This document shows, one piece after another, positions 3,899-16,618 of a stretch of 23,612 bases of DNA. The notes beneath the pieces are model-generated. The model was not told the origin of the DNA. It ran no database searches and saw only the letters and a list, made by a program, of their open reading frames with translations. This stretch comes from a virus (lineage: Duplodnaviria; Heunggongvirae; Uroviricota; Caudoviricetes), in the IMG/VR virus record IMGVR_UViG_2728369591_000007, one strand, 5' to 3'. Position 1 is the stretch's first letter; every line of letters begins with the position of its first letter. The position numbers and the translations under genes are program-made.

Positions 3899-4732
3899 AT
3901 GAACATCGAAAAAAGCAGATTAATTTCTGAGGCCGCCCCTCATCTGAACGCCTCTCTGGGCACAATTAACGGTAATGAATTTGCCGCAATTGTCCCGGTT
4001 ATTCCTGGTCATATCGGTGGGCGTGAAACCAATATTGTTAGCGCAAAAGCGTTACACAAAGCGTTGGGCGTGGGAAAAGACTTCTCTACATGGATCACTG
4101 ATCGCATCTCTGAATATGACTTCACCATTGGGCACGATTACTCAGTCCATAAAACAATTTCCCCAAATTTGGGGAAAAGCCCGAATGGCGCGGCTTACAG
4201 CAAGATAAAGCACTCTGGCAGACCCGGCAAAGACTATCTGTTAAGTGTCGGAATGGCGAAAGAACTGGCAATGATCGAACGCAATGATCAGGGTCGCGCT
4301 ATCCGCCGTTATTTCATCCAGTGCGAGGAAGAATTACAGCGTAGCGTTCCTGAAATCGCCGCCCGCTATCGTCGCCAGCTAAAAGCCCGTCTCAGTGCCG
4401 CAAACAACTTTAAGCCAATGTGCGATGCGCTGAATATGGCCCGTGCCGAGATTGGTAAAACGACGCAGCAACACCACTACACAAACGAGAGCAATATGAT
4501 TTCTCGTATCGTTCTTGGTGGGCTAACTGCTAAGCAGTGGGCGCGGATAAATGGCTATTCTGGCGAACCTCGCGACCATATGAACGCAGAACAGCTTGAG
4601 CACCTCTCATATCTCGAAAGCACCAATATCACGTTAATTGATATGGGCATGGAATATGAGCAGCGCAAAGGAGAACTCACCCGCCTGTCGCAACGCTGGC
4701 TCGCCAAGCGTCTGGAGGCGCTCAATGTCTAA
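3899..4732 (+). CDS. phage antirepressor-like protein (AntA/AntB-type N-terminal domain), 277 aa
   Basis: Motifs SAKALHKALGVGKDFSTWITDRISEYDF and DYLLSVGMAKELAMIERNDQGRAIRRYFIQCEEEL resemble the antirepressor family as I remember it; RBS GGAG 7 nt upstream. Confidence 0.6.
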   Translation: MNIEKSRLISEAAPHLNASLGTINGNEFAAIVPVIPGHIGGRETNIVSAKALHKALGVGKDFSTWITDRISEYDFTIGHDYSVHKTISPNLGKSPNGAAYSKIKHSGRPGKDYLLSVGMAKELAMIERNDQGRAIRRYFIQCEEELQRSVPEIAARYRRQLKARLSAANNFKPMCDALNMARAEIGKTTQQHHYTNESNMISRIVLGGLTAKQWARINGYSGEPRDHMNAEQLEHLSYLESTNITLIDMGMEYEQRKGELTRLSQRWLAKRLEALNV

Positions 4733-4904
4733 GCCAACAGGAACACCACAACCACAAAAACGCTACAAAGATGCCCACGGAGCACTCGTTACTGTCGAAA
4801 GCGTGTCTCACAACCGAGTGACGTTTTATCGCGACGGGTATCAATCGCCATGCGTACAACCGCTGGCGCGTTTCATGAAGGAGTTCGCGGAGGTTAACCA
4901 ATGA
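4725..4904 (+). CDS. hypothetical small protein, 59 aa
   Basis: ATG at 4725 preceded by GGAGG; overlaps the stop of the upstream gene by 8 bp; sequence MSKPTGTPQPQKRYKDAHGALVTVESVSHNRVTFYRDGYQSPCVQPLARFMKEFAEVNQ. Confidence 0.55.
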   Translation: MSKPTGTPQPQKRYKDAHGALVTVESVSHNRVTFYRDGYQSPCVQPLARFMKEFAEVNQ

Positions 4905-5338
4905 TACCCGTCCAGAAGAAGACATTTTCACTGGCTGGCATGTCGCCAAAATCCAGAAATATGACGGCAAAGTCAGGCATTAATACAGCAGATACAAGCA
5001 AAGTTTATCATTTGCTGGTGGTCGGAACGGATGCCTTAACCATACCAGAAATCTCGGGCGATGATATTAGCATTGAGAAGGTCAGCGGCTGCGCCAGAAA
5101 ATTTCTGGTCGTAGATGATGTCTTCCGCTCGTGTAGTGACTCCACAAAAACATTCGTCCACGCGCGTGACGTTAACGAAATGAGCGCGATGTACTGTGCT
5201 TCTGGTTCTTCCAATAGTGAGTTTTCGGAGTCCATAAAAAAGAGCTTGCCGTTATGCGGCAACACGGTTTATGGTTATAAGGCACCTCATAAAACGGGTG
5301 CCGGGTTTCGCAGCCCGGAAATGTACGAGGCGACACAT

Positions 5339-5360
5339 GACGCGCCGAGCGTCTTTTTTT
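5339..5360 (+). terminator. Candidate intrinsic terminator (short GC hairpin plus T7 run)
   Basis: GACGC-GCCGA-GCGTC followed by TTTTTTT. Confidence 0.5.
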
Positions 5361-5377
5361 GTGCCGTTAGCCAGACT

Positions 5378-5406
5378 CACACTTTTTTCAGTGATGTGGT
5401 TATAAT
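5378..5406 (+). promoter_or_regulatory. Candidate sigma70 promoter (perfect -10 TATAAT at 5401-5406, weak -35)
   Basis: TATAAT directly downstream of the terminator and upstream of a structured leader and the RBS-led ORF at 5563; the -35 match is poor, so the call is tentative. Confidence 0.3.
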
Positions 5407-5562
5407 CCGCGTCGCTTGCAAAATTATGGTGGGCTGGACAGGGCAGCCGAAAGGCTGGCCGGTTTCCTTGTACGCCGGTACTGCGAACTCTGTTCAGTCC
5501 ACCACCAGCGAGTTTCGCAGCTCCGGTGGTGGGAAGAATTCCCAGTACAAGGAGGCTGCCAC

Positions 5563-5757
5563 ATGCTGGCTACTACCCCTACCCAAAAACCGCAATTTAT
5601 CTGGATTATCGCCGCAGTTCGCCGCGATTGCCCGACAATTACCGCCAAAATTCATCATATTGCTGCCGAGTCTGAACGCGATGCTCGCCGTTCTCTGGTG
5701 CGCGATCACGTCTGCTTTTTTGCTGGTCGTATCCGCATGGAGGTGGCACATGATTAA
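5563..5757 (+). CDS. hypothetical small protein, 64 aa (first gene of the early operon)
   Basis: Strong RBS AGGAGG 7 nt upstream of ATG; translation MLATTPTQKPQFIWIIAAVRRDCPTITAKIHHIAAESERDARRSLVRDHVCFFAGRIRMEVAHD; stop overlaps the next start. Confidence 0.6.
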   Translation: MLATTPTQKPQFIWIIAAVRRDCPTITAKIHHIAAESERDARRSLVRDHVCFFAGRIRMEVAHD

Positions 5758-5968
5758 AACCTACGATGTGCATATGGATCCCCTCGAACGCACAAGCCAG
5801 ATCATCACACTGACAGAAGTGATTAACGACATTCTGGTGAGCAACTCTCCCTCACGAGACGAAAGACTGAAGGCGTTACTCGCGATATTGGATCTCGCCG
5901 TTCGTGACGTTCATTTCCTGCTGGAAGGTGGCGAAATGCCAGGAAAAACGGGGGCAACCAATGAATAA
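5750..5968 (+). CDS. hypothetical small protein, 72 aa
   Basis: ATG at 5750 preceded by GGAGG at spacing 7; translation MIKTYDVHMDPLERTSQIITLTEVINDILVSNSPSRDERLKALLAILDLAVRDVHFLLEGGEMPGKTGATNE; 8-bp overlap with both the previous and the next gene. Confidence 0.6.
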   Translation: MIKTYDVHMDPLERTSQIITLTEVINDILVSNSPSRDERLKALLAILDLAVRDVHFLLEGGEMPGKTGATNE

Positions 5969-6155
5969 CTCAATTAATGCCCCTCGACTTACGTCCGCAC
6001 TTCAATTAATCGAGCAAGCAGCGGCTGTCCTGGTTGCTGTCAGTCTTTCGGCTGAAGAAATGGACGCTGCTGATGTCGTGGATGCGATTAAAGCGTGCTC
6101 ATCTTTGGTTAACGATGCTCGTGCAGAGCTGGTAATTCTTGGTGGTGAAAAATGA
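5961..6155 (+). CDS. hypothetical small protein, 64 aa
   Basis: Internal ATG of the 5904 ORF chosen because of the ATGAATAA overlap with the upstream stop; translation MNNSINAPRLTSALQLIEQAAAVLVAVSLSAEEMDAADVVDAIKACSSLVNDARAELVILGGEK. Confidence 0.55.
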   Translation: MNNSINAPRLTSALQLIEQAAAVLVAVSLSAEEMDAADVVDAIKACSSLVNDARAELVILGGEK

Positions 6156-6415
6156 ATATCAACTTAATTTATCGTCATCCGTGTGAGCTGGAAATTGAAT
6201 CATTGCTGAGCCGTGAAGAGCCATATCCAGACACATTCACTCTTGCAGATCGCACGACTGAACGGCTTACCAGAGCGCGCACAGGTCTGGTTCATGTGAT
6301 GAATGAGATTCTTCCATCGGTGGGAGGGGAACAGGCGACAGTAATCACTAGCTGGCTACAAAAAGTTACCTCTCTGATAGATATCAGTTTAATCGATGCG
6401 GAGAGTGCGAAATGA
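6152..6415 (+). CDS. hypothetical protein, 87 aa
   Basis: ATGA start/stop overlap with the upstream gene (translational coupling); protein-like sequence. Confidence 0.6.
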   Translation: MNINLIYRHPCELEIESLLSREEPYPDTFTLADRTTERLTRARTGLVHVMNEILPSVGGEQATVITSWLQKVTSLIDISLIDAESAK

Positions 6416-6633
6416 CCAACATCCAGCTCATTGAAGCACAATGTCGCATCGAACAGGTTCAGACTGTTTTAGGGTTCTGGCTTGAAGGGGCCAGCCCCAG
6501 CAACAGAGACAAGTTAATGATTGGCGCGGTTATGTCACTGCTCAATGGCGTACCAGAAGCTATTCAGGAAGCAGACGAATTGTTGGGCAAATATGAGTTA
6601 CAGAATCATTCAGGCGAGGCGAAACATGAATAA
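6412..6633 (+). CDS. hypothetical protein, 73 aa
   Basis: ATGA overlap with the upstream gene; protein-like sequence. Confidence 0.6.
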   Translation: MTNIQLIEAQCRIEQVQTVLGFWLEGASPSNRDKLMIGAVMSLLNGVPEAIQEADELLGKYELQNHSGEAKHE

Positions 6634-7228
6634 TTTCTTAACTTTCCATGCAGAAGCAACGCCTGACGGCGTAAACATCATGTACCGCAGCAACGATGGC
6701 ATGACAGAACGCGTTGAGGCCGTCTCATATATTGATGCCGTAAATCGTCTGGATGCCGGGGATTATGACGATAAACCAGATGAAGGTATGTCAATACATC
6801 TCGCTATAGCCGATGGCGGCAACCAGGGATATTTCGATTACACATCACAGCATAACGTCATTATGTGGAGATGGCTGATCGCAACAGTATTCATGCTGGA
6901 AATGAGAGAGGAAAACGGCACTGTCAGCATCATTGATGATACTGGCAATCCTTCCGAAGTGGCTGTTTATTCCAACGGCATCGTCGCCATGCCGCTGTAT
7001 CCAGTAGCAGAGCGCCTCGCTATGGCAAACAACATTGAGGGCGCGATGATAGAACGTTTTGGCATCGAGTCTGGCACAGAACGCGCCATCATTTTCTACA
7101 GAGCCATGATGGATGTGGAACAAGGAGCACTGACTCCATTTGGTCGTGAAACGCTTGCTGAACTTCACAACAGCTTTATAGCTGAACTGAATGAAAACGG
7201 CATGCCAGCGGAACCAGTGACGCACTGA
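6626..7228 (+). CDS. hypothetical protein, 200 aa
   Basis: Start ATG at 6626 (MNNFLTFHAEATPDG...) preceded by GAGG; 8-bp overlap with the upstream stop. The longer track ORF from 6521 was trimmed to this start. Confidence 0.6.
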   Translation: MNNFLTFHAEATPDGVNIMYRSNDGMTERVEAVSYIDAVNRLDAGDYDDKPDEGMSIHLAIADGGNQGYFDYTSQHNVIMWRWLIATVFMLEMREENGTVSIIDDTGNPSEVAVYSNGIVAMPLYPVAERLAMANNIEGAMIERFGIESGTERAIIFYRAMMDVEQGALTPFGRETLAELHNSFIAELNENGMPAEPVTH

Positions 7229-7238
7229 GGATGGAACC

Positions 7239-7580
7239 ATGATTACTAAAAATTTCCGACTGAATGCGCTGGCAAATAAGTATGCGTCGGCACTGTATAA
7301 CCACATTACCTCCACCAGCGGCGGGGACTATTTCATGGTTGATGCGGACGGCGAGGCCGTCCGTGTGGAAATCGTCAATGGAGTAAAAGGCGTTCGCAGC
7401 CTGATCGATAGCTACACACTGGCAGCCATGAAAGTGTTCTACCCGCAGTGGGAAACCGTGGGGATCGAGCTTCTTGATCGTTGCGTCACTAAGGACGGAT
7501 TGACTGACGTCGGGCGTGAGATATGGCAAAGCATGGTTAATGACATGGGCGCAACTGTAGCGGGAGGTTCTCATGCGTGA
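7239..7580 (+). CDS. hypothetical protein, 113 aa
   Basis: RBS GAGG upstream; same operon and orientation as its neighbours. Confidence 0.6.
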   Translation: MITKNFRLNALANKYASALYNHITSTSGGDYFMVDADGEAVRVEIVNGVKGVRSLIDSYTLAAMKVFYPQWETVGIELLDRCVTKDGLTDVGREIWQSMVNDMGATVAGGSHA

Positions 7581-7944
7581 AAATGCAGAAATGGCGCTTA
7601 GCTCCGCAATCGGAGAGCAGGTGGCAAAGATTGCTGGTGCTGTGTGGATTCATAACCTTCATTCTACTGGTGAAGAGAAAATGGCAATTCAGACGCCAGA
7701 GGGACGCACCATTACTACATCTCTGAAGCCGTCAGATGTTTGTGATCTGATTTGCGCATTCATGTACCCAGCAATGAGGACTGCCCACGGCGATAAGTGG
7801 AAACTTGCGACAACCGCTGAATTTGATATGTGGCTAAACAATGATGGCATGCTGACTGATTACGGAATAACCAAGTGGCAGATGCTGGTTAGCCATATCG
7901 CAAACGCTATAGACCACGTGGGGTACGGTGATGCGAAACATTGA
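7573..7944 (+). CDS. hypothetical protein, 123 aa
   Basis: 8-bp overlap with the upstream gene; its own stop overlaps the primase start. Confidence 0.6.
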   Translation: MRENAEMALSSAIGEQVAKIAGAVWIHNLHSTGEEKMAIQTPEGRTITTSLKPSDVCDLICAFMYPAMRTAHGDKWKLATTAEFDMWLNNDGMLTDYGITKWQMLVSHIANAIDHVGYGDAKH

Positions 7945-10687
7945 TCTTATCCGTCAGGTTATCAGTGCGTCTGAAAACAACTGGCCTCATGTGCTGGGCT
8001 GCCTGAACATAAATGTCCCTGACTCTCCGCGCCGTCATGCTCCCTGCCCTGCATGTGGGGGCAAAGATCGATTCCGGTTCGATGACAACGGGCGCGGTAG
8101 CTTCATCTGTAATCAGTGCGGCGCTGGTGATGGGCTGGATTTAATTAAACGCGTAAATAACTGCGACACAACAGAGGCGGCGCTTCTTGCCGCTGATGTT
8201 CTGGGTATTGATTACCGGACAACGGAAACACCAGAAGCCACCAGCCAGAAACGGGAACAACTGGAAACCGAGCGCCAGCGACGCGAACAGGAGCGCCTGA
8301 AAAGGGCAGAGAAGGACGAACAACAAAGACGGGATACGTTTTCCCGTCAGTTTGATGACATGCGCAGAAAGGCTGTAAACGGCAAATCTGATTATTTGGT
8401 TGCGAAAGGGGTAGGTGATTTTACATTCCCCGTGTTGCCCGATGGATCTCTGTTGCTGGCGCTGGTGGATAAATCCGGCGCAGTAACAGCAGCACAGACT
8501 ATTACCTCACATGGTGAAAAAAGACTCCTGACAGGTTCAGCAAAGCGGGGGGCATATCACGCCATAAACGCACCAGAAACAACACAGAGCATCTTAATCG
8601 CAGAAGGGCTGGCAACGGCATTATCTGCCCATTTAATTCGTCCAGAGGCGCTGACAGTGGCGGCGATTGATGCCGGGAACCTGTTATATGTCGCCCAGGT
8701 ACTGCGGGATAAATTTCCTTCAGCACAAATCATCATTGCTGCGGATAACGACCACAGCGAAGGAAGACAAAACACGGGGAGAATAGCAGCAGAAAAAGCA
8801 GCTTTATCTGTTTCTGGATGGGTGGCATTACCCCCGACAGATCACAAAGCAGACTGGAATGATTACCACCAAAAACACGGCATTAAATGCGCCACAGAAG
8901 CGTTCAATAAGTCAATGTACCAACCACAGGGTAATGGCGTGAAACAGGAGCCACAGACCATTGAGGGAAGCGATTTTAAGGTTATGGATACCGACCCACT
9001 GAAACCAAGAATAGAAAGCCGCGAGGATGGTATTTATTGGGTATCTCCGAGAGCTGACAGCCAGAGTGGAGAAATCATCAATAACGAAAGCTGGTTATGT
9101 TCTCCGTTAAGCGTTATCGGTACTGGCAGAGACGATAAAGACCAGTATCTCATTCTTCGCTGGCTGTCGTTTGGTTCTGAAACGCCGACAACCGCTGCCA
9201 TTCCACTGGCTGATATTGGTGAACGTGAAGGATGGCGCACACTTAAAGCTGGTGGGGTAAATGTCACGACCAAAAGCAGCCTCAGAGCAATGCTGGCAGA
9301 CTGGCTACAACGCAGTGGCTCTCGTGAATTGTGGCGTGTTGCTCATGCCACTGGCTGGCAATGCGGAGCGTACATCATGCCTGATGGGGAAATCATCGGA
9401 ACACCTGAAAATCCTGTGCTGTTCAGCGGGAGAAGCTCAGCCGCAGCCGGATATACCGTCTCAGGGAGCGCGCAAAGCTGGCGTGATAACGTGGCGCGTC
9501 TGGCCTTTGGTAACTATTCAATGATGACCGGGATCGGCGCAGCACTGGCAGCACCATTGATTGGGCTGGTGGGCGCTGACGGGTTCGGCATTCATTTCTA
9601 TGAGCAGTCGAGCGCAGGTAAGACCACCACGGCAAACGTGGCGAGCAGCTTATACGGCAACCCTGATTTACTGCGGCTGACGTGGTACGGAACCGCGCTG
9701 GGGCTGGCAAATGAGGCCGCCGCCCACAATGACGGACTAATGCCGCTTGATGAAGTTGGTCAGGGCGCTGATCCTGTCAGCGTTTCACAGTCTGCCTATG
9801 CGTTATTTAACGGTGTAGGGAAACTGCAAGGCGCTAAAGATGGTGGAAACCGGGATCTAAAACGTTGGCGTACAGTGGCAATCAGCACCGGAGAAATGGA
9901 TTTAGAAACATTTATCGCTACTTCCGGGCGAAAAACCAAAGCCGGGCAACTGGTGCGACTGCTGAATATTCCGTTGACTAAAGCAGTACGCTTTCACGAT
10001 TACCAGAACGGAAAACAGCACGCAGACGCACTGAAAGACGCTTACCAGCATCACCACGGCGCGTCCGGGCGTGAGTGGATTAAATGGCTGGCAGACCACC
10101 AGCAACAGGCTATTAAAACCGTTCGTGATTGCGAAAGCAGATGGAGAAGCCTGATCCCATCCGATTATGGTGAGCAGGTTCACCGTGTAGCCGCGCGATT
10201 TGCCATTCTGGAGGCCGCATTGTTGTTAGGCGAGGTTGTAACAGGCTGGGATGCTCAGACATGCCGTGATGCGATACAGCACAGCTATAACGCATGGTTG
10301 CGCGAGTTCGGCACAGGTAACAAAGAGCATCAGCAGATTATTGAACAAACGGAGGCATTTCTTAATGCCTATGGGCTTAGCCGTTTTGCACCATTTCCAT
10401 ACAGCCCGGCAGATTTGCCCATCAAAGATTTAGCCGGATACCGTCAGCGTGGAGAACATGACGAAAGCCCAATGATTTTCTACACATTCCCGGCCACATT
10501 TGAAAAGGAGATCGCATGTGGTTTCAACGCAAAACAGTTTGCTGAAGTGTTGAAAAAAGCCGGGATGCTAACCCCACCAAACAGCGGTCGTGGATACCAA
10601 AGAAAATCACCACGTATTCAGGGACGACAAATAAACGTTTATGTACTCAATTACCAGCCAGGAGATTATAACTCATCTGAAGAATGA
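7928..10687 (+). CDS. replicative primase-helicase, P4 alpha-like (zinc ribbon + TOPRIM + P-loop NTPase), 919 aa
   Basis: Zinc ribbon CPACGG-x17-CNQCG; TOPRIM-like IIAEGLATALSAH and IIIAADNDHSEG; Walker A-like SSAGKTT and Walker B-like LMPLDEVG; iteron cluster immediately downstream. Confidence 0.85.
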   Translation: MMRNIDLIRQVISASENNWPHVLGCLNINVPDSPRRHAPCPACGGKDRFRFDDNGRGSFICNQCGAGDGLDLIKRVNNCDTTEAALLAADVLGIDYRTTETPEATSQKREQLETERQRREQERLKRAEKDEQQRRDTFSRQFDDMRRKAVNGKSDYLVAKGVGDFTFPVLPDGSLLLALVDKSGAVTAAQTITSHGEKRLLTGSAKRGAYHAINAPETTQSILIAEGLATALSAHLIRPEALTVAAIDAGNLLYVAQVLRDKFPSAQIIIAADNDHSEGRQNTGRIAAEKAALSVSGWVALPPTDHKADWNDYHQKHGIKCATEAFNKSMYQPQGNGVKQEPQTIEGSDFKVMDTDPLKPRIESREDGIYWVSPRADSQSGEIINNESWLCSPLSVIGTGRDDKDQYLILRWLSFGSETPTTAAIPLADIGEREGWRTLKAGGVNVTTKSSLRAMLADWLQRSGSRELWRVAHATGWQCGAYIMPDGEIIGTPENPVLFSGRSSAAAGYTVSGSAQSWRDNVARLAFGNYSMMTGIGAALAAPLIGLVGADGFGIHFYEQSSAGKTTTANVASSLYGNPDLLRLTWYGTALGLANEAAAHNDGLMPLDEVGQGADPVSVSQSAYALFNGVGKLQGAKDGGNRDLKRWRTVAISTGEMDLETFIATSGRKTKAGQLVRLLNIPLTKAVRFHDYQNGKQHADALKDAYQHHHGASGREWIKWLADHQQQAIKTVRDCESRWRSLIPSDYGEQVHRVAARFAILEAALLLGEVVTGWDAQTCRDAIQHSYNAWLREFGTGNKEHQQIIEQTEAFLNAYGLSRFAPFPYSPADLPIKDLAGYRQRGEHDESPMIFYTFPATFEKEIACGFNAKQFAEVLKKAGMLTPPNSGRGYQRKSPRIQGRQINVYVLNYQPGDYNSSEE

Positions 10688-11449: not shown

Positions 11450-11911
11450 ATGGAACTAAAATTTATTGATAACCCTGTGCGATTACAGGCCTTTCTTAAC
11501 GAGCCAGGCAATACCGAAAATATTGTTGAGCCGGGGCACACGTACTACATCAAGCCTGATGCGGTATATCTCGGCATCTACGAAGGATTAGTGCTGGCTG
11601 GCGTTCATGAAGTGCGTAACTTCTGGCATAGCGTTGTTGAATGCCATGCGGTGTACGACCCCGGATTCCGTGGTGAATATGCACTGCAAGGGCATCGATT
11701 ATTCTGCAAATGGCTTCTCGAAAACTCACCATTCCTTAACAGCATTACCATGGTTCCTGACACCACCAAATACGGACGGGCAATTATCCGTTTGCTTGGC
11801 GCTACCCGTGTTGGTCACCTTGATGATGCTTATATCAGATGTGGTAAACCCGTCGGCGTAACGCTTTATCAGTTAACTCGGCAACAATATAAGGAATTCA
11901 GCGAATGTTAA
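11450..11911 (+). CDS. hypothetical protein, 153 aa (first gene of cargo cassette)
   Basis: Co-directional with, and overlapping, the next gene; protein-like sequence; no family recognised. Confidence 0.6.
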   Translation: MELKFIDNPVRLQAFLNEPGNTENIVEPGHTYYIKPDAVYLGIYEGLVLAGVHEVRNFWHSVVECHAVYDPGFRGEYALQGHRLFCKWLLENSPFLNSITMVPDTTKYGRAIIRLLGATRVGHLDDAYIRCGKPVGVTLYQLTRQQYKEFSEC

Positions 11912-12582
11912 TTACCCACATAGCTCATAAACATCTCAATCGTGCCGTATACGAAAAAGGCGGTGATGGTGGTGCCTCTAAAGCTCAGGCGAAGGCCCAG
12001 CAGCAGGCAATTGATTTGCAGCGCGAGCAGTGGAATACGGTGATGAATAATCTCAAGCCGTATGCAGAAGTCGGATTGCCTGCTTTACAACAACTACAAG
12101 GACTGATGACTCTGGAAGGGCAGAATAAAGCCGCGAATGATTTCTTTGGTTCTGGTTTATATAAAACACAGGCAGATCAGGCCCGTTATCAGAACCTTGT
12201 CTCAGCAGAAGCTACCGGGGGGCTTGGCTCAACAGCTACCAGTAACCAGTTATCTTCCATTGCGCCCATGCTTTATAACAATTGGCTTAGTGGGCAAATG
12301 CAAAATTATGGAAACCTGCTAAATGTCGGGATGAATGCGGCATCAGGGCAGGCAACAGCAGGGCAAAACTACGCCAATAATACCGGACAACTCTTGCAGG
12401 GGCTTGGCGCTATTCGTGCAGGTCAGGCGCAGCAGCCATCCAGTCTTGCGCGTGGTATTGGTGGGGCAGCATCAGGCGCTTTAGCGGGTGCGCAACTTGG
12501 TTCCGTTGTTCCTGGAATAGGTACTGCGGCAGGCGCTATTGGTGGTGGGCTTATTGGTCTTGTTGGGGGGCTTGGATTCTAA
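11905..12582 (+). CDS. Gln/Gly-rich protein with C-terminal glycine-zipper hydrophobic segment, 225 aa (ejection/pilot-protein-like)
   Basis: C-terminus GIGGAASGALAGAQLGSVVPGIGTAAGAIGGGLIGLVGGLGF; stop overlaps the next start (TAATG). Confidence 0.6.
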   Translation: MLITHIAHKHLNRAVYEKGGDGGASKAQAKAQQQAIDLQREQWNTVMNNLKPYAEVGLPALQQLQGLMTLEGQNKAANDFFGSGLYKTQADQARYQNLVSAEATGGLGSTATSNQLSSIAPMLYNNWLSGQMQNYGNLLNVGMNAASGQATAGQNYANNTGQLLQGLGAIRAGQAQQPSSLARGIGGAASGALAGAQLGSVVPGIGTAAGAIGGGLIGLVGGLGF

Positions 12583-13901
12583 TGGCGACATGGCAACTTG
12601 GCGGGCTGCCTAGCATGGCACCGCAAAATGATAATGCTCCTCGTTCTTCCGTTCCTCAGCCTGTGCAGTATCAGCAGCAGCCAAACGTAGGTTTAATGGC
12701 GCTACAGGGGCTAAGAGGCGTTGCTGAGATTAATCAGCAGGCGCAAATTTCCCAGCAGCTAAAAGAATATCAGGCACAGTTGGGTAGTGCGGTAGCTAAT
12801 AATGATCGTGTTGGCGTGCAGAAGTTAATGGCCCAGTATCCCCAGTTTATGGCTGATTCTCAAAAACAGATGGGATTCATTGATGCTGAGCAAAATCGGC
12901 AGACCGCTGACGCTGCCATGAATCTGCGTCTTGCGTCACAAACTGGAGATCCACTGACCATGCAGAAGGCCATTCAGCAGGCAAATCCAGTATTACAGCG
13001 ATTTGGTCTTCCTGCTGAAGAGGTTTATCAGTCTTGGCAGAATGACCCACAGGAATTCAACAGAATCACTGACCTCATCCACCTCCATGCTGATCCAAAT
13101 AGTTACTTTAGTGTTCAAGAGAAGCAGCAAGGGCAGAGTATTGCACAGCAGAACGCAGATACATCTGCATATAATGCTCAGGTTAATGCGGAACAGGGTA
13201 ATCGGCGTCTCGATATGGAGCAGTTCAAAGTCCTATCCGATAACCAGCTACGCACGAGAGAAATGGTTCTGAAAGCACGACTTGGACGTGCTCAAAATGA
13301 CATCGAGAGAGACAAGCTCAATGCTGAACTGAGCAAGGTACAGCAGGCGAAAGTGGAGAAGATGAACGATAAAATTAATACTGTTGCAGGTAACATCGAC
13401 TCCTTGAACTCTGCGCTTGAAGTGGGTCATGAACTGGCGGGAATTGTAGGGAAACATCCTTCGGCCGTTACCCGTTCGCAGAACTATAACCCCCTGACGC
13501 TGGGGTTTGGATTCCTTCCTGATGTAGCAGAAGACACACGAAGCCTACGCGCCAAAGCTGATGAATACAACCTAAAGGTTATTCTGCCTAGCCTCAAAGG
13601 GACTTTTGGCTCTAACCCAACCGAAGGGGAAAGGGCTGCCCTTATGCAATCTCAAAATGGCATTAAGTCAGCAACCAGCAATGAGGCATTTTTGCGAGAG
13701 TTGAATAAAGCGCAGGACGTAATTATTCGAATGCAGAAACGACAGATTGCCGGGCTCGGTATTCCTGTAACCAAATCTAAGGACGAAGAAACTGATACTA
13801 AAATGCTGTTGCAGGATCCTTCTCTGGTTAAGGATTATGTGACCGCACATGGCTATCTGCCGGAAAGTTACTATCAGGCAAAACTTAAGGGATGGCAATG
13901 A
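12582..13901 (+). CDS. Gln-rich predicted coiled-coil protein, 439 aa (internal-virion/ejection-protein-like)
   Basis: Long Q/A/N-rich helical-looking sequence; translationally coupled to both flanking genes. Confidence 0.6.
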   Translation: MATWQLGGLPSMAPQNDNAPRSSVPQPVQYQQQPNVGLMALQGLRGVAEINQQAQISQQLKEYQAQLGSAVANNDRVGVQKLMAQYPQFMADSQKQMGFIDAEQNRQTADAAMNLRLASQTGDPLTMQKAIQQANPVLQRFGLPAEEVYQSWQNDPQEFNRITDLIHLHADPNSYFSVQEKQQGQSIAQQNADTSAYNAQVNAEQGNRRLDMEQFKVLSDNQLRTREMVLKARLGRAQNDIERDKLNAELSKVQQAKVEKMNDKINTVAGNIDSLNSALEVGHELAGIVGKHPSAVTRSQNYNPLTLGFGFLPDVAEDTRSLRAKADEYNLKVILPSLKGTFGSNPTEGERAALMQSQNGIKSATSNEAFLRELNKAQDVIIRMQKRQIAGLGIPVTKSKDEETDTKMLLQDPSLVKDYVTAHGYLPESYYQAKLKGWQ

Positions 13902-16618
13902 TGGCACAACTGACAGAAAAACAGAAAGCCTATTCCCGTCATCTCGATGAAAAATATGGTTTCCCATCAGGGACGATGGAAACATTAGTTGGCAATGAAT
14001 CTAGTGGTAACGGAAGTGCCGAGTCACCGAAAGGAGCTAGAGGATTTGCTCAACTGATGCCCTCAGTAATGAGTGATGCTGGTTATCGTGGAACAGATCC
14101 GCGCTCACTGCCATTTGAAAAGCAAATGGATATCGCAGCAAACCATCTCAATAAAGGAATGAAGCGATTTGGTGATATAGGTATGGCATTGGCTGGGTAT
14201 AATTCTGGCTATGCTCGTATTAATGCCGTAAGAAACGGTAAATCTACACTGCCAGATGAAACGGCTAATTACGTAAGTAAATTTGCAGATGCCGGAATAA
14301 TCCCTGATGACAGTGAAATCTTGCAGTTTGCACAAACCAGTCAACATCGCAATCTTCAGCAGCCTGACTACTCAGAGCTTGATAAAGAAATCTCTCAGGT
14401 GGGAGATATTTCTGCATGGGAAGCAAAACGTCAGCAATTTAAGAACATAGAAGCAGGACTACCAACAGCCAGTTCATGGGAGCAGAAAAGAGCTCATTTT
14501 CTCGCCGATGAAAATGCCGGGGAACCGCAGCAGCAAGTAGCCAAGTCTAACCTTAATCCTGAGATGGAATATCTTTCGCCAGGACTGAAAGCTGCGCCAG
14601 AGCAGATGGCCAGAGGGATTGCTAATATACCGTTTGATGTAATGGACGCAGGCGTGGGGGTAGTCAATGCGGCGCAATCAGCCGGAGCATGGGCAGCTCA
14701 GAAGCTTGGTGTGGGTGATGGTACATACACGCCCATATCACCTGTCTTTCGCCCAGTAGACCAACCTACAGATCCATACGCGCAGGCTGGTGAGCAGCTA
14801 GCACCTTACCTTATTACAGGATTAGGTGCAGGAAAGGCAGCTACCGCAGCTTCTTCAGTTGCCAACGCTCCACGTGCTGAACGTGCGGCCACAAAGGTGG
14901 CTAGTATGTTGGCAGAAAACCTGCCAGGTACATTGGTGAACGCCCAAAAGAACGGGCAGATCAGCCCAGAAGACCTAGCAAAAGAGACAGGTATTGGCCT
15001 AGCAGGATCGCTAGGAGCACGCGCTTTAATAAAGAGCGGACAGACAGCCAGTGACGTAATGCGAGATGTATTGCGGAGTAATACAAATCAATCAAGCTAT
15101 GTGTTAGGGGCAGCAAATACTCTGGAAACCGCCAATGATGTATCGAAAGCAGCGCGTTCTGCCGTAGGCCGAGAGCATATCGCATCGCAGGCATCAAACG
15201 TCAGAGATGATGTCGCTAAGGCGGCGAAAATCACTGGTATTAATATCAACACCCTGACGCCTGGAATGCGCTCAGGTAGTCGTGGAATTGCCCAAGCAGA
15301 AGGTGTTCTGGCATCAACTCCTGGGAATGTTCAGGATGCTCACCTTACGGCCTTCAATGAAATATCCTCAAAGTTGAATAAGCAGTTGTCTGATTTCGGT
15401 GCTGAGTCTGGAAGCGCATCAGAAAAAAGCGCAGCAATTAAAGAGCGCATCATCGCGAGCCTCAGTGATATGAAAACAGCAGAGAATATGGCATGGGCAG
15501 AACTGCGAAGCACGATGCCACGCGAAAGGATGAAAATGAGTAATGGGATGGCTGTCGTCCAAGCAGAAAAAGCAGCCAATGTTCCACTCAGCCCGGAGAT
15601 GAAACAGTTTCAGGCTGCCAATAACCAAGGTGGCGGCATAACCTTCGACGGGATGAAGGCATGGCGTGCTAAGTTTGCTGATGCTGAACAAGCAAACACC
15701 CGGGCAGGTAAGGCCAATGCCGCCCGGGTTGCCGGAGAAATGCGCAGAGCTATCACTGATGACATGCGCATCATGGCTGAAAAAGGAAACTTCCTCACAG
15801 AATGGCAGAAAGCTAACGATCTCTCTAAAAGTTACATTATCGCCAAACAAAATGCCGAATCTGTTTTTGGTCGAGATCTCGCATCAGACGCTATGGTAAG
15901 AAAAGGTGCCGATACGCTTAAGGCATCCGCAAACACTGGAACGGGAGCTTTTCACCGTCTTATCTCCGCGCTGCCGGAAGCAGAACGCCAACCAGCAATA
16001 GCATCTATTCTTCAGCATGCTGTGGCGCAGGGAGAGAAGGGAGGAATCGGTGAAGAGTCTGGTATCCAGTATTTTGCCAAGCTCATGACCCAGCAGAATG
16101 TAAACGCCATCAGTCGTCATGCGCCAGATCTCGGTAGAATGATGAAAGAGTTCGGTGTACTCGCTAAAGCCAGCACCAGACCGCAGCGATACGTAGAGCG
16201 CACGGGAAGAACAACTGAGGCTCTCAAAACGCTCGATTCAGGCCTTCCAAAGATCGTCGGCGTGATTATGAACGGAGTTCAACAGTCAGGTGCGATCGCT
16301 GGAGGCTTTGGCGGTGGTGTAATTGGTTCGATTAGTGGTTTGGTTGCTGGTGGCGCGCTGAGAAATACTGTGGCTAAGATTGGGGCGACAAGAAGTGGTC
16401 GATATGCGATAGAGAAAGCCGTTCAGGAAGCTACAAAAGCAGTGCGCGCAGGGGCATCACCAGCAGCGATCGCCGCAGCAGAGAAACGATTTTCGGCCAA
16501 TAAAATTGCCATGAAAGCAATTCGTGATGCCGTTGGGGCTGAAGAATTCGTGAAACTGACAAGGGCCGGGATTGTAGCTACCCTCAGTGGCATGAAAGAT
16601 GTTAGCGAATGGGAATAG
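13892..16618 (+). CDS. large protein with N-terminal lytic transglycosylase (SLT) domain and C-terminal glycine-rich hydrophobic segment, 908 aa
   Basis: SLT family signature near the N-terminus: catalytic E-S in GNESSGN, GFAQLMPS, and AGYNSGYAR; C-terminal GAIAGGFGGGVIGSISGLVAGGAL; architecture recalls podovirus internal core proteins of the T7 gp16 class. Confidence 0.7.
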   Translation: MAMMAQLTEKQKAYSRHLDEKYGFPSGTMETLVGNESSGNGSAESPKGARGFAQLMPSVMSDAGYRGTDPRSLPFEKQMDIAANHLNKGMKRFGDIGMALAGYNSGYARINAVRNGKSTLPDETANYVSKFADAGIIPDDSEILQFAQTSQHRNLQQPDYSELDKEISQVGDISAWEAKRQQFKNIEAGLPTASSWEQKRAHFLADENAGEPQQQVAKSNLNPEMEYLSPGLKAAPEQMARGIANIPFDVMDAGVGVVNAAQSAGAWAAQKLGVGDGTYTPISPVFRPVDQPTDPYAQAGEQLAPYLITGLGAGKAATAASSVANAPRAERAATKVASMLAENLPGTLVNAQKNGQISPEDLAKETGIGLAGSLGARALIKSGQTASDVMRDVLRSNTNQSSYVLGAANTLETANDVSKAARSAVGREHIASQASNVRDDVAKAAKITGININTLTPGMRSGSRGIAQAEGVLASTPGNVQDAHLTAFNEISSKLNKQLSDFGAESGSASEKSAAIKERIIASLSDMKTAENMAWAELRSTMPRERMKMSNGMAVVQAEKAANVPLSPEMKQFQAANNQGGGITFDGMKAWRAKFADAEQANTRAGKANAARVAGEMRRAITDDMRIMAEKGNFLTEWQKANDLSKSYIIAKQNAESVFGRDLASDAMVRKGADTLKASANTGTGAFHRLISALPEAERQPAIASILQHAVAQGEKGGIGEESGIQYFAKLMTQQNVNAISRHAPDLGRMMKEFGVLAKASTRPQRYVERTGRTTEALKTLDSGLPKIVGVIMNGVQQSGAIAGGFGGGVIGSISGLVAGGALRNTVAKIGATRSGRYAIEKAVQEATKAVRAGASPAAIAAAEKRFSANKIAMKAIRDAVGAEEFVKLTRAGIVATLSGMKDVSEWE

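Follow-up and report, generated by a model that had tools for sequence, protein, structure and literature searches.

The region at positions 5246-5757 of the window (the whole 23,612-nucleotide stretch of viral DNA analysed here) very probably serves as the immunity (maintenance) switch for a satellite island of the P4/PICI type integrated at the tRNA-Thr gene (thrW) of E. coli, and it is homologous to the seqA-CI-seqC region of satellite phage P4. The type of switch is already known from P4 and from phage P1; the version in this island carries its own recognition sequence. By analogy with those systems, an antisense RNA would pair with boxes flanking its own gene and thereby keep the replication genes of the island off. 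The analysis establishes which elements make up the region and that they are homologous to those of P4, as well as the RNA structures and a three-way covariation of both recognition boxes. An earlier sequence-only reading of this DNA had proposed seqA/seqB/seqC pairing of the P4 kind, and the homology of the locus to the P4 immunity region (in the order of its Rfam matches, in DNA alignment, and in the Icd/Kil-like gene that comes next) bears this out; a second set of complementarity, an arm shared by two structures at 5499-5506, and a long open reading frame through the whole region had escaped it.

The window is an uncharacterised satellite-like island at E. coli thrW. In common with PICIs it has int, alpA, Bro/Ant-type genes, immunity RNAs in an eta-like gene, a primase, and captured late genes, and its layout matches the zones described for Gram-negative PICIs, in which C4/isrK matches lie inside 'Bro-zone' genes (PMC10111431, where the eta/kil/CI mechanism is also summarised). 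P22-like ejection-protein genes are present and sid, psu and delta genes are absent within the window, unlike P4. No exact tRNA 3'-end repeat of at least 13 nt (the island's right-end repeat) was found within the window, and a megablast search against sequenced phages returned nothing beyond a 34-bp identity, in three records.

Elements shared with the P4 immunity region

All elements lie on the + strand. The first is a promoter homologous to the P4 promoter P_LE (5246-5275), with a -35 element TTGCCG at 5246-5251, an 18-nt spacer and a -10 element TATGGT at 5270-5275; transcription is predicted to start near 5282. It has 8/12 matches to the sigma-70 consensus, and because there are only so many it is absent from the output of the promoter scan. 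It is presumed to be active; the motifs GCTTGC and TATnGT are nearly invariant across 64 homologous loci and align to P4 just upstream of its isrK match. The sequence-only reading had instead pointed to a TATAAT box, which does lie at 5401-5406 and yet is not the conserved promoter, that role falling to 5246-5275. TATAAT is conserved only among the nearest relatives (about 10 of the 16 sequences of the window's sub-clade) and is found neither in P4 nor in the P4-like majority; the promoter scan did not call it either, and on these two grounds it was rejected as the operon promoter. It may serve as an additional promoter for the C4 RNA, in which case C4 could be made without any need for read-through.

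The leader RNA (IsrK, or 'seqA RNA', 5282-5360) consists of hairpin 1 (5282-5301), the seqA hairpin (5301-5318), the b1 box and an intrinsic terminator; it matches Rfam isrK (RF01394) at 5282-5359, over model positions 1-77 of 77, scoring 69 bits where the gathering score is 50. Across the 64 loci its helices keep 99-100% pairing and show compensatory changes. The seqA hairpin, CCGGG/CCCGG, had been described as presenting in its loop the 10-mer GTTTCGCAGC, which occurs, as had been noted, at both 5305-5314 and 5512-5521; the hairpin is real, while the loop is confined to 5306-5313, G5305 and C5314 closing the stem. Within the loop lies the seqA core TTCGCAG (5307-5313), complementary to 5481-5487. 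The b1 box GTACGAGG (5323-5330) is complementary, with one G-U pair, to the loop of C4 hairpin 2. The candidate terminator at 5339-5360 (GACGCGCCGAGCGTC followed by T7) was rightly recognized: it is matched by the terminator scan, and its sequence is nearly invariant among the 64 loci, 14 of which have a single G-C/C-G exchange. Its position is homologous to that of 'terminator t1' in P4, and it would end a putative short IsrK-like RNA.

Downstream lies the gene for a C4/CI-type antisense RNA (5422-5509), with a closing stem (5427-5443/5488-5504), hairpin 1 (5444-5457) and hairpin 2 (5458-5479). It matches Rfam C4 (RF01695) over 5422-5509, model positions 1-87 of 87, scoring 81.1 bits (gathering score 45), and the mature RNA probably spans about 5427-5507. 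Minimum-energy folding recovers the Rfam structure (z = -4.9 to -6.3), and each of the 64 sequences keeps the closing stem and the two hairpins 100% paired, with 8 + 5 pairs (13) changed on both sides. The hairpin CAGCC-GAAA-GGCTG (5444-5457) had been listed as a GNRA-type hairpin; it exists as drawn, and it belongs together with CTGCGAA (5481-5487) to this single RNA. The latter motif, the seqB core, occupies a single-stranded junction and is unpaired both in the Rfam consensus and in the minimum-energy fold, and the b' box TCCTTGTAC (5465-5473) occupies the loop of hairpin 2. IsrK and C4 correspond to the seqA RNA and the CI RNA, respectively (PMC3632133; PMC4825925).

The second copy of the 10-mer is enclosed, as had been described, by the 8-bp stem CCACCACC/GGTGGTGG (5499-5532), the loop of which holds the seqC core TTCGCAG (5514-5520); this seqC hairpin is 99.6% paired, with 4/8 pairs changed on both sides. 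Its 5' arm (5499-5506) doubles as the 3' arm of the stem that closes C4, which makes the two structures mutually exclusive. The b2 box GTACAAGGA (5545-5555, the box proper being 5545-5553) overlaps AGGAGG (5550-5555), the Shine-Dalgarno sequence of the Icd/Kil-like gene (64 aa, 5563-5757, ATG at 5563), which is predicted to be translated first downstream of the immunity RNAs. The gene product matches NCBIfam NF033153 (phage_ICD_like, E = 3.7e-20) and is 39% identical to the 65-aa Kil ORF of P4; the 5' part of the gene is C-rich and G-poor (GC skew -0.33 to -0.14 over 5560-5720). The early operon presumed to be under control of the switch (5750-10687) continues through small ORFs with overlapping stops and starts, the first of which (5750-5968, 72 aa) has no family match, up to a primase (7928-10687) with Zn-ribbon, Toprim and DUF927 domains (PHROG 1139, E = 1e-178).

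This order (promoter, seqA, terminator, CI RNA with seqB, seqC, Icd/Kil-like gene, primase operon) is shared with P4, where the Rfam isrK and C4 matches are ordered and spaced alike, and the P4 DNA aligns to the window element by element with the 7-mers swapped. Common to both are seqA in the loop of a hairpin with an intrinsic terminator after it, seqB in a junction, and a seqC hairpin just downstream; the predicted promoter upstream of seqA and the predicted terminator that separates seqA from the CI gene have their counterparts in P4, as do the kil-type gene directly after seqC, its ribosome-binding site adjoining the antisense target, and a (presumably) controlled operon that encodes a replication primase. 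The two differ in the core (GTGAGAA/TTCTCAC in P4 versus TTCGCAG/CTGCGAA in the window), in the b box (TTCACAGG versus GTACAAGG), in the terminator-to-CI spacer (45 nt shorter in the window), and in the primase, that of the window having Toprim and DUF927 domains.

Pairing and covariation of the two recognition boxes

Two sets of complementarity connect the C4 RNA with its flanks (the a'/b' naming of the boxes is reportedly that of Citron and Schuster, 1990). The first joins CTGCGAA at 5481-5487 to the cores in both the seqA and seqC loops, a complementarity noticed previously and now found to be kept in all 64 loci. The second joins TCCTTGTAC (5465-5473) to GTACAAGGA (5545-5553), complementary at 9/9 positions, and CCTTGTAC (5466-5473) to GTACGAGG (5323-5330).

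Alleles were counted in 81 loci, and the alignment and pair counts refer to the 64 distinct sequences among these homologous loci. Eight 7-nt alleles are found in the 81 loci, and two more, in strain YPE3 and phage D6 (one each), bring the total to ten. The seqB core matches seqC exactly in 81/81 loci and seqA in 79/81; one of the remaining two is cut at a contig end and the other is resolved by alignment, such that both seqA and seqC match seqB in 64/64 distinct aligned sequences. Both seqA:seqB and seqB:seqC are accordingly paired in 100% of the 64 sequences, with 6/7 pairs changed on both sides in each case. The b' box covaries with b1 and with b2: in the same alignment b':b1 is 99.8% paired (6/8 pairs changed on both sides) and b':b2 is 96.9% paired (6/9). 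When one partner was slid by 1-3 columns as a control, pairing fell to 25-47%, and the observed covariation was reached in 0/500 shuffles. The covariance analysis across homologous islands that the sequence-only reading had put forward as a check thus came out in its favor, the pairings being 97-100% maintained with many compensatory changes in the 64 loci. The recognition boxes vary independently of each other (10 a-alleles and at least 15 b-alleles).

Two further candidates were set aside. An extra hairpin between seqC and b2 (5530-5544) has a covariation score reached in 0/500 shuffles, and was not retained as a conserved hairpin since its pairing is too low (69% of cells). Within the operon, 7383-7399 reads GTAAAAGG..TTCGCAG, resembling adjoining b and a boxes; as a third antisense target it was rejected, since it is identical in four relatives with other immunity alleles and its box order is wrong for co-linear pairing, and it is attributed to chance.

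Proposed mechanism and related immunity systems

We propose that the promoter at 5246-5275 would fire constitutively, RNA beginning near 5282, and that the terminator at 5339-5360 would halt most transcripts, yielding an IsrK-like RNA of about 78 nt that carries seqA in a hairpin loop, followed by b1. Read-through RNA would carry the C4/CI-type RNA (about 5427-5507), from which it may be excised as by RNase P in P4 and P1. The stable C4 RNA would then display two boxes, b' in the hairpin-2 loop and seqB in the junction, which may pair in trans with seqA and b1 of the leader and so strengthen termination there, and may also bind seqC (5514-5520) and b2 (5545-5553), the latter over the Shine-Dalgarno sequence of the Icd/Kil-like gene. 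Blocked translation would leave the C-rich RNA of that gene bare and would lead to an early end of transcription (Rho-dependent in P4), with the operon up to the primase remaining off. Transcripts from further upstream would be translated as the eta-like ORF described below, and the ribosomes would override the RNA targets and terminators. In P4, RNase P and PNPase process the CI RNA out of its transcript, and termination needs CI and, at timm, Rho. For the island, the C-rich, G-poor composition over 5560-5720 is at most an indirect hint of such behavior; enhanced leader termination and Rho-dependent termination within the Icd-like gene are assumed by homology, and RNA processing and anti-termination by translation are likewise modelled on P4 and P1.

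A different weighting of the two RNAs is suggested by Gifsy-1, in which a short leader of the same isrK Rfam family is followed by a C4-like RNA (STnc1160) on the read-through transcript, and the short IsrK activates orf45-anrP translation (that of the long isoform) in trans (PMC4825925). On the same logic, the leader RNA 5282-5360 would be more than a target in cis for repression: it would be the main regulator, working in trans on the long read-through transcript or as a decoy for C4, so that the structure opens and downstream translation is activated. This appears possible, if rather unlikely: the leader matches Rfam isrK, the short leader RNA is fully complementary to both C4 boxes because seqA and b1 are both aboard, and when the full leader is folded at minimum energy, seqA/b1 and seqB/b' are paired with each other in cis. 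The genes downstream differ, however, from those of Gifsy-1, an Icd-like gene and then a primase operon being P4-type content as opposed to orf45-anrP-isrJ; moreover, such activation is compatible with the P4 model, and both could operate.

Another closely related system is the immI region of P1/P7, where c4 acts in heteroimmunity (PMC12197685) and a C4-family RNA bears two boxes, each matched upstream and at the icd ribosome-binding site, as in the window. The P1-like phage D6 has isrK and C4 in the same order and spacing, in an isrK-C4-icd layout with two boxes matched in this way and an antirepressor after icd, and the island itself has an AntA/AntB antirepressor gene (3899-4732). Hence the C4 RNA might only block icd translation and control a coupled antirepressor directly downstream, as in P1. 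We consider this improbable, as the antirepressor gene of the island lies upstream of the promoter and RNAs, whereas small ORFs and the primase follow downstream, so the target operon, presumably one for replication, resembles that of P4 and not that of P1.

An eta-like reading frame through the switch

The motifs lie where the sequence-only reading had placed them, and its description of the region as noncoding is incomplete: an ORF of 355 aa (4901-5968, + strand), homologous to P4 eta, spans all of it. Its start overlaps the stop of a DUF4222 gene (ATGA); it crosses the promoter, both RNA genes and, in another frame (+2 relative to it), the Icd-like gene, and ends in frame with the 5750-5968 gene. 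In P4 the eta and kil ORFs have their published sizes, 197-199 aa and 65 aa. The P4 eta gene is coupled to an alpA/vis homologue, and kil is nested in frame within it, as in the P4-like majority of relatives, where kil is the in-frame terminal part of eta; in the window the eta-like ORF and the kil/icd gene are out of frame with each other, and the gene coupled upstream is the DUF4222 gene in place of alpA/vis.

In RefSeq the ORF is an 'ash family protein', and it matches Pfam PF10554 (Phage_ASH) over aa 124-232, equivalent to nt 5270-5596, with 99.7 bits against a cut-off of 26 (E = 1.6e-28). The frame is open in 63/64 relatives, with length differences that are multiples of 3. These facts would fit a region that is merely the middle of a protein gene, the hairpins and repeats being by-products of the Phage_ASH domain. 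That reading is very improbable: compensatory double changes that preserve pairs alter the encoded amino acids, pN/pS in the ash/eta frame (0.58-1.10) is not clearly below that of the two control frames (0.78-1.25), which gives no clear amino-acid constraint, each conserved 'protein' motif of Ash coincides with the promoter, the terminator or an RNA helix, and the P4 immunity factor is the CI RNA, processed from an untranslated transcript (PMC4825925). Least credible of all is that repeats and complement coincide by chance in intergenic DNA of high GC content: 2.7% of shuffled versions of the 265-bp region do contain an exact 10-mer direct repeat, and the 7-mer is common across the window (7 copies on both strands versus 3.6 expected, 3 of them clustered at the switch), but the concerted change of three copies in 64 homologous loci, through multiple alleles, is decisive against it, and Rfam E-values of 1e-13 to 1e-15 for isrK and C4 in the window also speak against it.

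In the immunity reading preferred here, the eta-like ORF is probably translated, its conservation probably stems from nucleic-acid elements, and the conservation of the Pfam Phage_ASH family as a whole seems owed to promoter, terminator and RNA elements. Where it crosses the Icd-like gene, the alternative frame lacks stops in 15/15 members of the window's clade; as proof of selection for translation this was discarded, the evidence being weak because 42/53 relatives that do not use the frame are open there too. It is conceivable, though less likely than not, that in the sub-clade the eta homologue changed frame, so that it ceased to end as Kil/Icd, runs across that gene out of frame and became fused to the next one, while remaining open over both RNA genes under selection on the passage of ribosomes (anti-termination by translation) and not on the protein product. 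If so, independently varying boxes together with selection on passage would let many mutually heteroimmune satellites coexist in E. coli, and specificity would shift by concerted triple substitutions or by recombination.

The locus adds little to the mechanism itself, because an IsrK/seqA-C4/CI-seqC switch is textbook antisense-RNA phage immunity and both RNAs are already in Rfam. It does provide a catalogue of immunity alleles, made up of a 7-nt core and a loop box of 8-9 nt, each in three matching copies, from which cross-immunity between satellites of the P4-like and PICI-like kinds could be predicted. RefSeq labels for the locus are inconsistent ('ash family protein', a long 'Icd-like protein', a frameshifted pseudogene) and leave the RNA genes unmarked, and P4-like and PICI-like satellites are found in about one fifth of complete E. 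coli genomes.

Homology to the phage P4 immunity locus

An Rfam scan of the window at gathering thresholds returned three hits: isrK (RF01394; 5282-5359; 69 bits), the C4 antisense RNA (RF01695; 5422-5509; 81.1 bits), and tRNA-Thr(CGU) (1369-1444). Phage P4 gives the identical pair of isrK and C4 hits in unchanged order, and the literature equates IsrK with the P4 'seqA RNA' and C4 with the P4 CI RNA (PMC3632133; PMC4825925); in Gram-negative PICIs, C4 and isrK hits occur within 'Bro-zone' genes (PMC10111431). P4 DNA aligns with the window element by element, and every P4 element has a window counterpart: the promoter and hairpin 1; the seqA hairpin (CCGGG-CGTGAGAA-CCCG in P4, CCGGG-TTTCGCAG-CCCGG in the window); a common terminator, GACGCGCC..GCGTC followed by seven T; the CI/C4 RNA junction (TTCTCAC versus CTGCGAA); the seqC hairpin (GAGCGTGAGAACTCCGG versus GAGTTTCGCAGCTCCGG); and, alike in both, GGAGGCTGCC followed by the ATG of a 64-65-aa gene. 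In the window this Icd-like gene (5563-5757) matches NCBIfam phage_ICD_like (E = 3.7e-20), and its protein is 39% identical to the 65-aa P4 ORF.

All motifs from which the sequence-only reading had proposed P4-like RNA-RNA pairing were located in the window: the 10-mer GTTTCGCAGC at 5305-5314 and 5512-5521, its 7-nt complement CTGCGAA (seqB) at 5481-5487, hairpins at 5301-5318, 5444-5457 and 5499-5532, a hairpin with a T-run at 5339-5360, and TATAAT at 5401-5406. When the 265-bp region is shuffled, 2.7% of the resulting sequences contain an exact 10-mer repeat, and the 7-mer has 7 copies in the window (three of them clustered at the locus) against 3.6 expected; the single sequence is therefore suggestive, and the proof is comparative. 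The C4 segment folds as the Rfam structure (-45.8 kcal/mol, z = -4.9; z = -6.3 for 5427-5506), leaving seqB and the loop box of hairpin 2 unpaired. The C4 closing stem and the seqC hairpin share sequence, since the 3' arm of the former (5499-5504) lies within the 5' arm of the latter (5499-5506), and they are therefore mutually exclusive. When the full leader is folded alone, seqA and the adjacent box b1 pair with seqB and the loop box in cis, so that the same contacts are possible inside one transcript.

The sequence TGGTTATAA occurs twice, at 5272-5280, overlapping the -10 region of the leader promoter, and at 5397-5406, where it forms the TATAAT box ahead of C4; conservation of this latter copy is limited to the nearest relatives, and it might be a separate C4 promoter in the window's sub-clade.

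Covariation and alleles of the pairing boxes

Homologous loci (80, on viral contigs) were retrieved via the Icd-like protein, and alleles were counted at 81 loci with a locatable C4 hairpin. Across these, seqB takes eight distinct 7-nt forms, matched exactly by seqC in 81/81 and by seqA in 79/81, the two exceptions being one locus truncated by the end of its contig and one settled by alignment. On the seqA/seqC strand the forms are TTGGCGT, GTAGGAA, GTGAGAA (P4), GTGGAAA, TTCGCAG (the window), TTGGTCT, TTTGCAG and TTAGCAG; E. coli YPE3 and phage D6 add two further alleles, TTTGCAC and TTGAGAC respectively. In a 64-sequence alignment, seqB:seqC and seqA:seqB are each paired in 100% of cells, with changes on both sides in 6 of 7 pairs; the three C4 helices are likewise paired in 100% (13 of 27 pairs changed on both sides), and the seqC hairpin in 99.6% (4 of 8). 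Controls in which the partner was slid by 1-3 columns pair at 25-47%. The observed covariation score was reached by none of 500 shuffles, which take no account of relatedness; the covariation is robust nonetheless, given the slid controls and how many distinct alleles there are. Conservation and covariation in related islands, on which the earlier proposal had been made to depend, are thus clearly present.

A second recognition box accompanies the first. The loop of C4 hairpin 2, TCCTTGTAC (b', 5465-5473), is perfectly complementary to GTACAAGGA (b2, 5545-5553), which overlaps AGGAGG (5550-5555), the Shine-Dalgarno sequence of the Icd-like gene, and it also pairs, with one G-U pair, with GTACGAGG (b1, 5323-5330), located between the seqA hairpin and the terminator. 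In the 64-sequence alignment b':b2 is paired in 96.9% and b':b1 in 99.8% of cells, each with 6 pairs changed on both sides; the loop box has at least 15 forms, which combine freely with the 7-nt alleles. The C4 RNA of P1 and P7 has the same two-box design, with boxes a' and b' and targets a1/b1 and a2/b2, and in the P1-like phage D6 this design is directly visible, as in the window. Five loci (L004-L008) encode an Icd protein 100% identical to the window's, yet carry another 7-mer (TTGGCGT) and another loop box. Compared with window 5300-5560, all three copies of each box have switched together, which implies that otherwise near-identical islands change their immunity specificity by recombination or in rapid, concerted fashion. 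Farther downstream, GTAAAAGG-GC-TTCGCAG at 7383-7399 resembles adjacent b and a boxes; it was rejected as a chance match because it is unchanged in relatives with other immunity alleles.

The overlapping eta-like reading frame

The region had been described as noncoding, and it does contain RNA genes, but a 355-aa ORF, the RefSeq 'ash family protein' at 4901-5968, spans it. Residues 124-232 match Pfam Phage_ASH (PF10554), corresponding to nt 5270-5596, exactly the span of the promoter, both RNA genes (isrK and C4), seqC and the ribosome-binding site; the same family is matched by P4's old 'cI protein' ORF. In 63/64 relatives the eta frame has no stop between the isrK start and the Shine-Dalgarno sequence, and the segment (window 5282-5556 and homologues) falls into seven length classes (263-320 nt) whose differences are multiples of three in 62/64; shuffling the window segment leaves any frame open in only 6% of cases. 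In P4 and most relatives the ORF starts a few codons past the upstream gene's stop and enters the Icd/Kil gene in frame. The P4 ORF measures 199, 198 or 197 aa from three consecutive ATGs, and kil 65 aa, in agreement with the sizes reportedly given for eta and kil by Forti et al. in 1999. In the window's sub-clade the ORF crosses the Icd-like gene +2 out of frame and ends in frame with a 72-aa gene (5750-5968); the alternative frame is stop-poor in 42/53 relatives anyway, so its openness is no strong evidence.

Values of pN/pS are much alike in the three frames, at 0.58-1.10 in the eta frame versus 0.78-1.25 in the other two, and the conserved 'protein' motifs fall on the -35 and -10 boxes, the terminator and the RNA helices. 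We read the ORF as one that is probably translated, with nucleic-acid elements accounting for the conservation seen in it and in the Pfam family; it looks as if the frame stays open for the sake of translation rather than for the product. P4 eta is translated only from an upstream late promoter, and its translation prevents termination (PMC10111431, summarising Forti et al.).

RefSeq labelling of the locus is inconsistent (window 4901-5968; homologous loci L085 329-1225, L086 264-1517, L087 829-1583 and L084 1562-2125), the labels comprising a 355-aa or 417-aa 'ash family protein', a 298-aa 'Icd-like protein', a frameshifted pseudogene, and a partial 'ash' pseudogene after which a 64-aa Icd-like gene is listed separately. 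None of the annotation tables retrieved lists an RNA gene here. This annotation caveat and the catalogue of immunity alleles are useful by-products.

Proposed circuit and island context

The P4-like immunity first proposed from the sequence is supported by P4 homology, RNA structures and covariation, which, like the elements themselves, are observed directly, and a P4-type mechanism is most likely for the window. Transcription would start near 5282 from the promoter at 5246-5275, and most transcripts would end at 5339-5360; read-through and processing would yield a C4/CI-type RNA whose seqB and loop box pair with two targets, the leader on the one hand and seqC plus the ribosome-binding site on the other. 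This pairing would block translation of the Icd-like gene, and transcription would then end inside its C-rich, G-poor 5' part, where GC skew falls to -0.33, so that the primase operon would stay silent. Transcripts initiated upstream and translated as the eta-like ORF would escape this control. By analogy with Gifsy-1, the short RNA may also act as a trans activator or as a C4 RNA decoy, a role compatible with the data. With the AntA/AntB gene situated upstream, control of an antirepressor in the manner of P1 is unlikely. The P4-type system is of a well-known kind, and the window copy is a member not characterised before, with a specificity allele of its own.

Window 4700-6200 is 100% identical to E. 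coli KK19-02, where the island follows proA and thrW and begins with a tyrosine integrase; similar DNA is found in 1070/5426 complete E. coli genomes. Comparison of 1369-1470 with the rest of the window gave no exact downstream repeat, at 13 nt or longer, of the tRNA-Thr 3' end, so the right-hand attachment site is degenerate or outside it. Gene order runs from integrase, AlpA, an AntA/AntB protein and a DUF4222 protein through the eta-like ORF with its embedded RNA genes to the Icd-like gene, several small ORFs, a primase (Zn-ribbon, Toprim and DUF927 domains) and homologues of the P22 ejection proteins gp14, gp7, gp20 and gp16. The latter four genes (11450-16618) resemble gp14 (DUF2824), gp7, gp20 (Inj_translocase) and, as a 908-aa protein with an N-terminal lytic transglycosylase domain, gp16; this is a satellite-type island with a full set of ejection-protein genes and without capsid or tail genes in the window. 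Gram-negative PICIs with captured late genes have the same zone layout (PMC10111431). The otherwise collinear TOK-001 island (L083 5029-5042) lacks the two small genes (113 and 123 aa; 7239-7944) that immediately precede the primase gene in the window, and in YPE3 and 64.1 the first of them stands before another primase ('P4 family'); this makes the replication module a mosaic.
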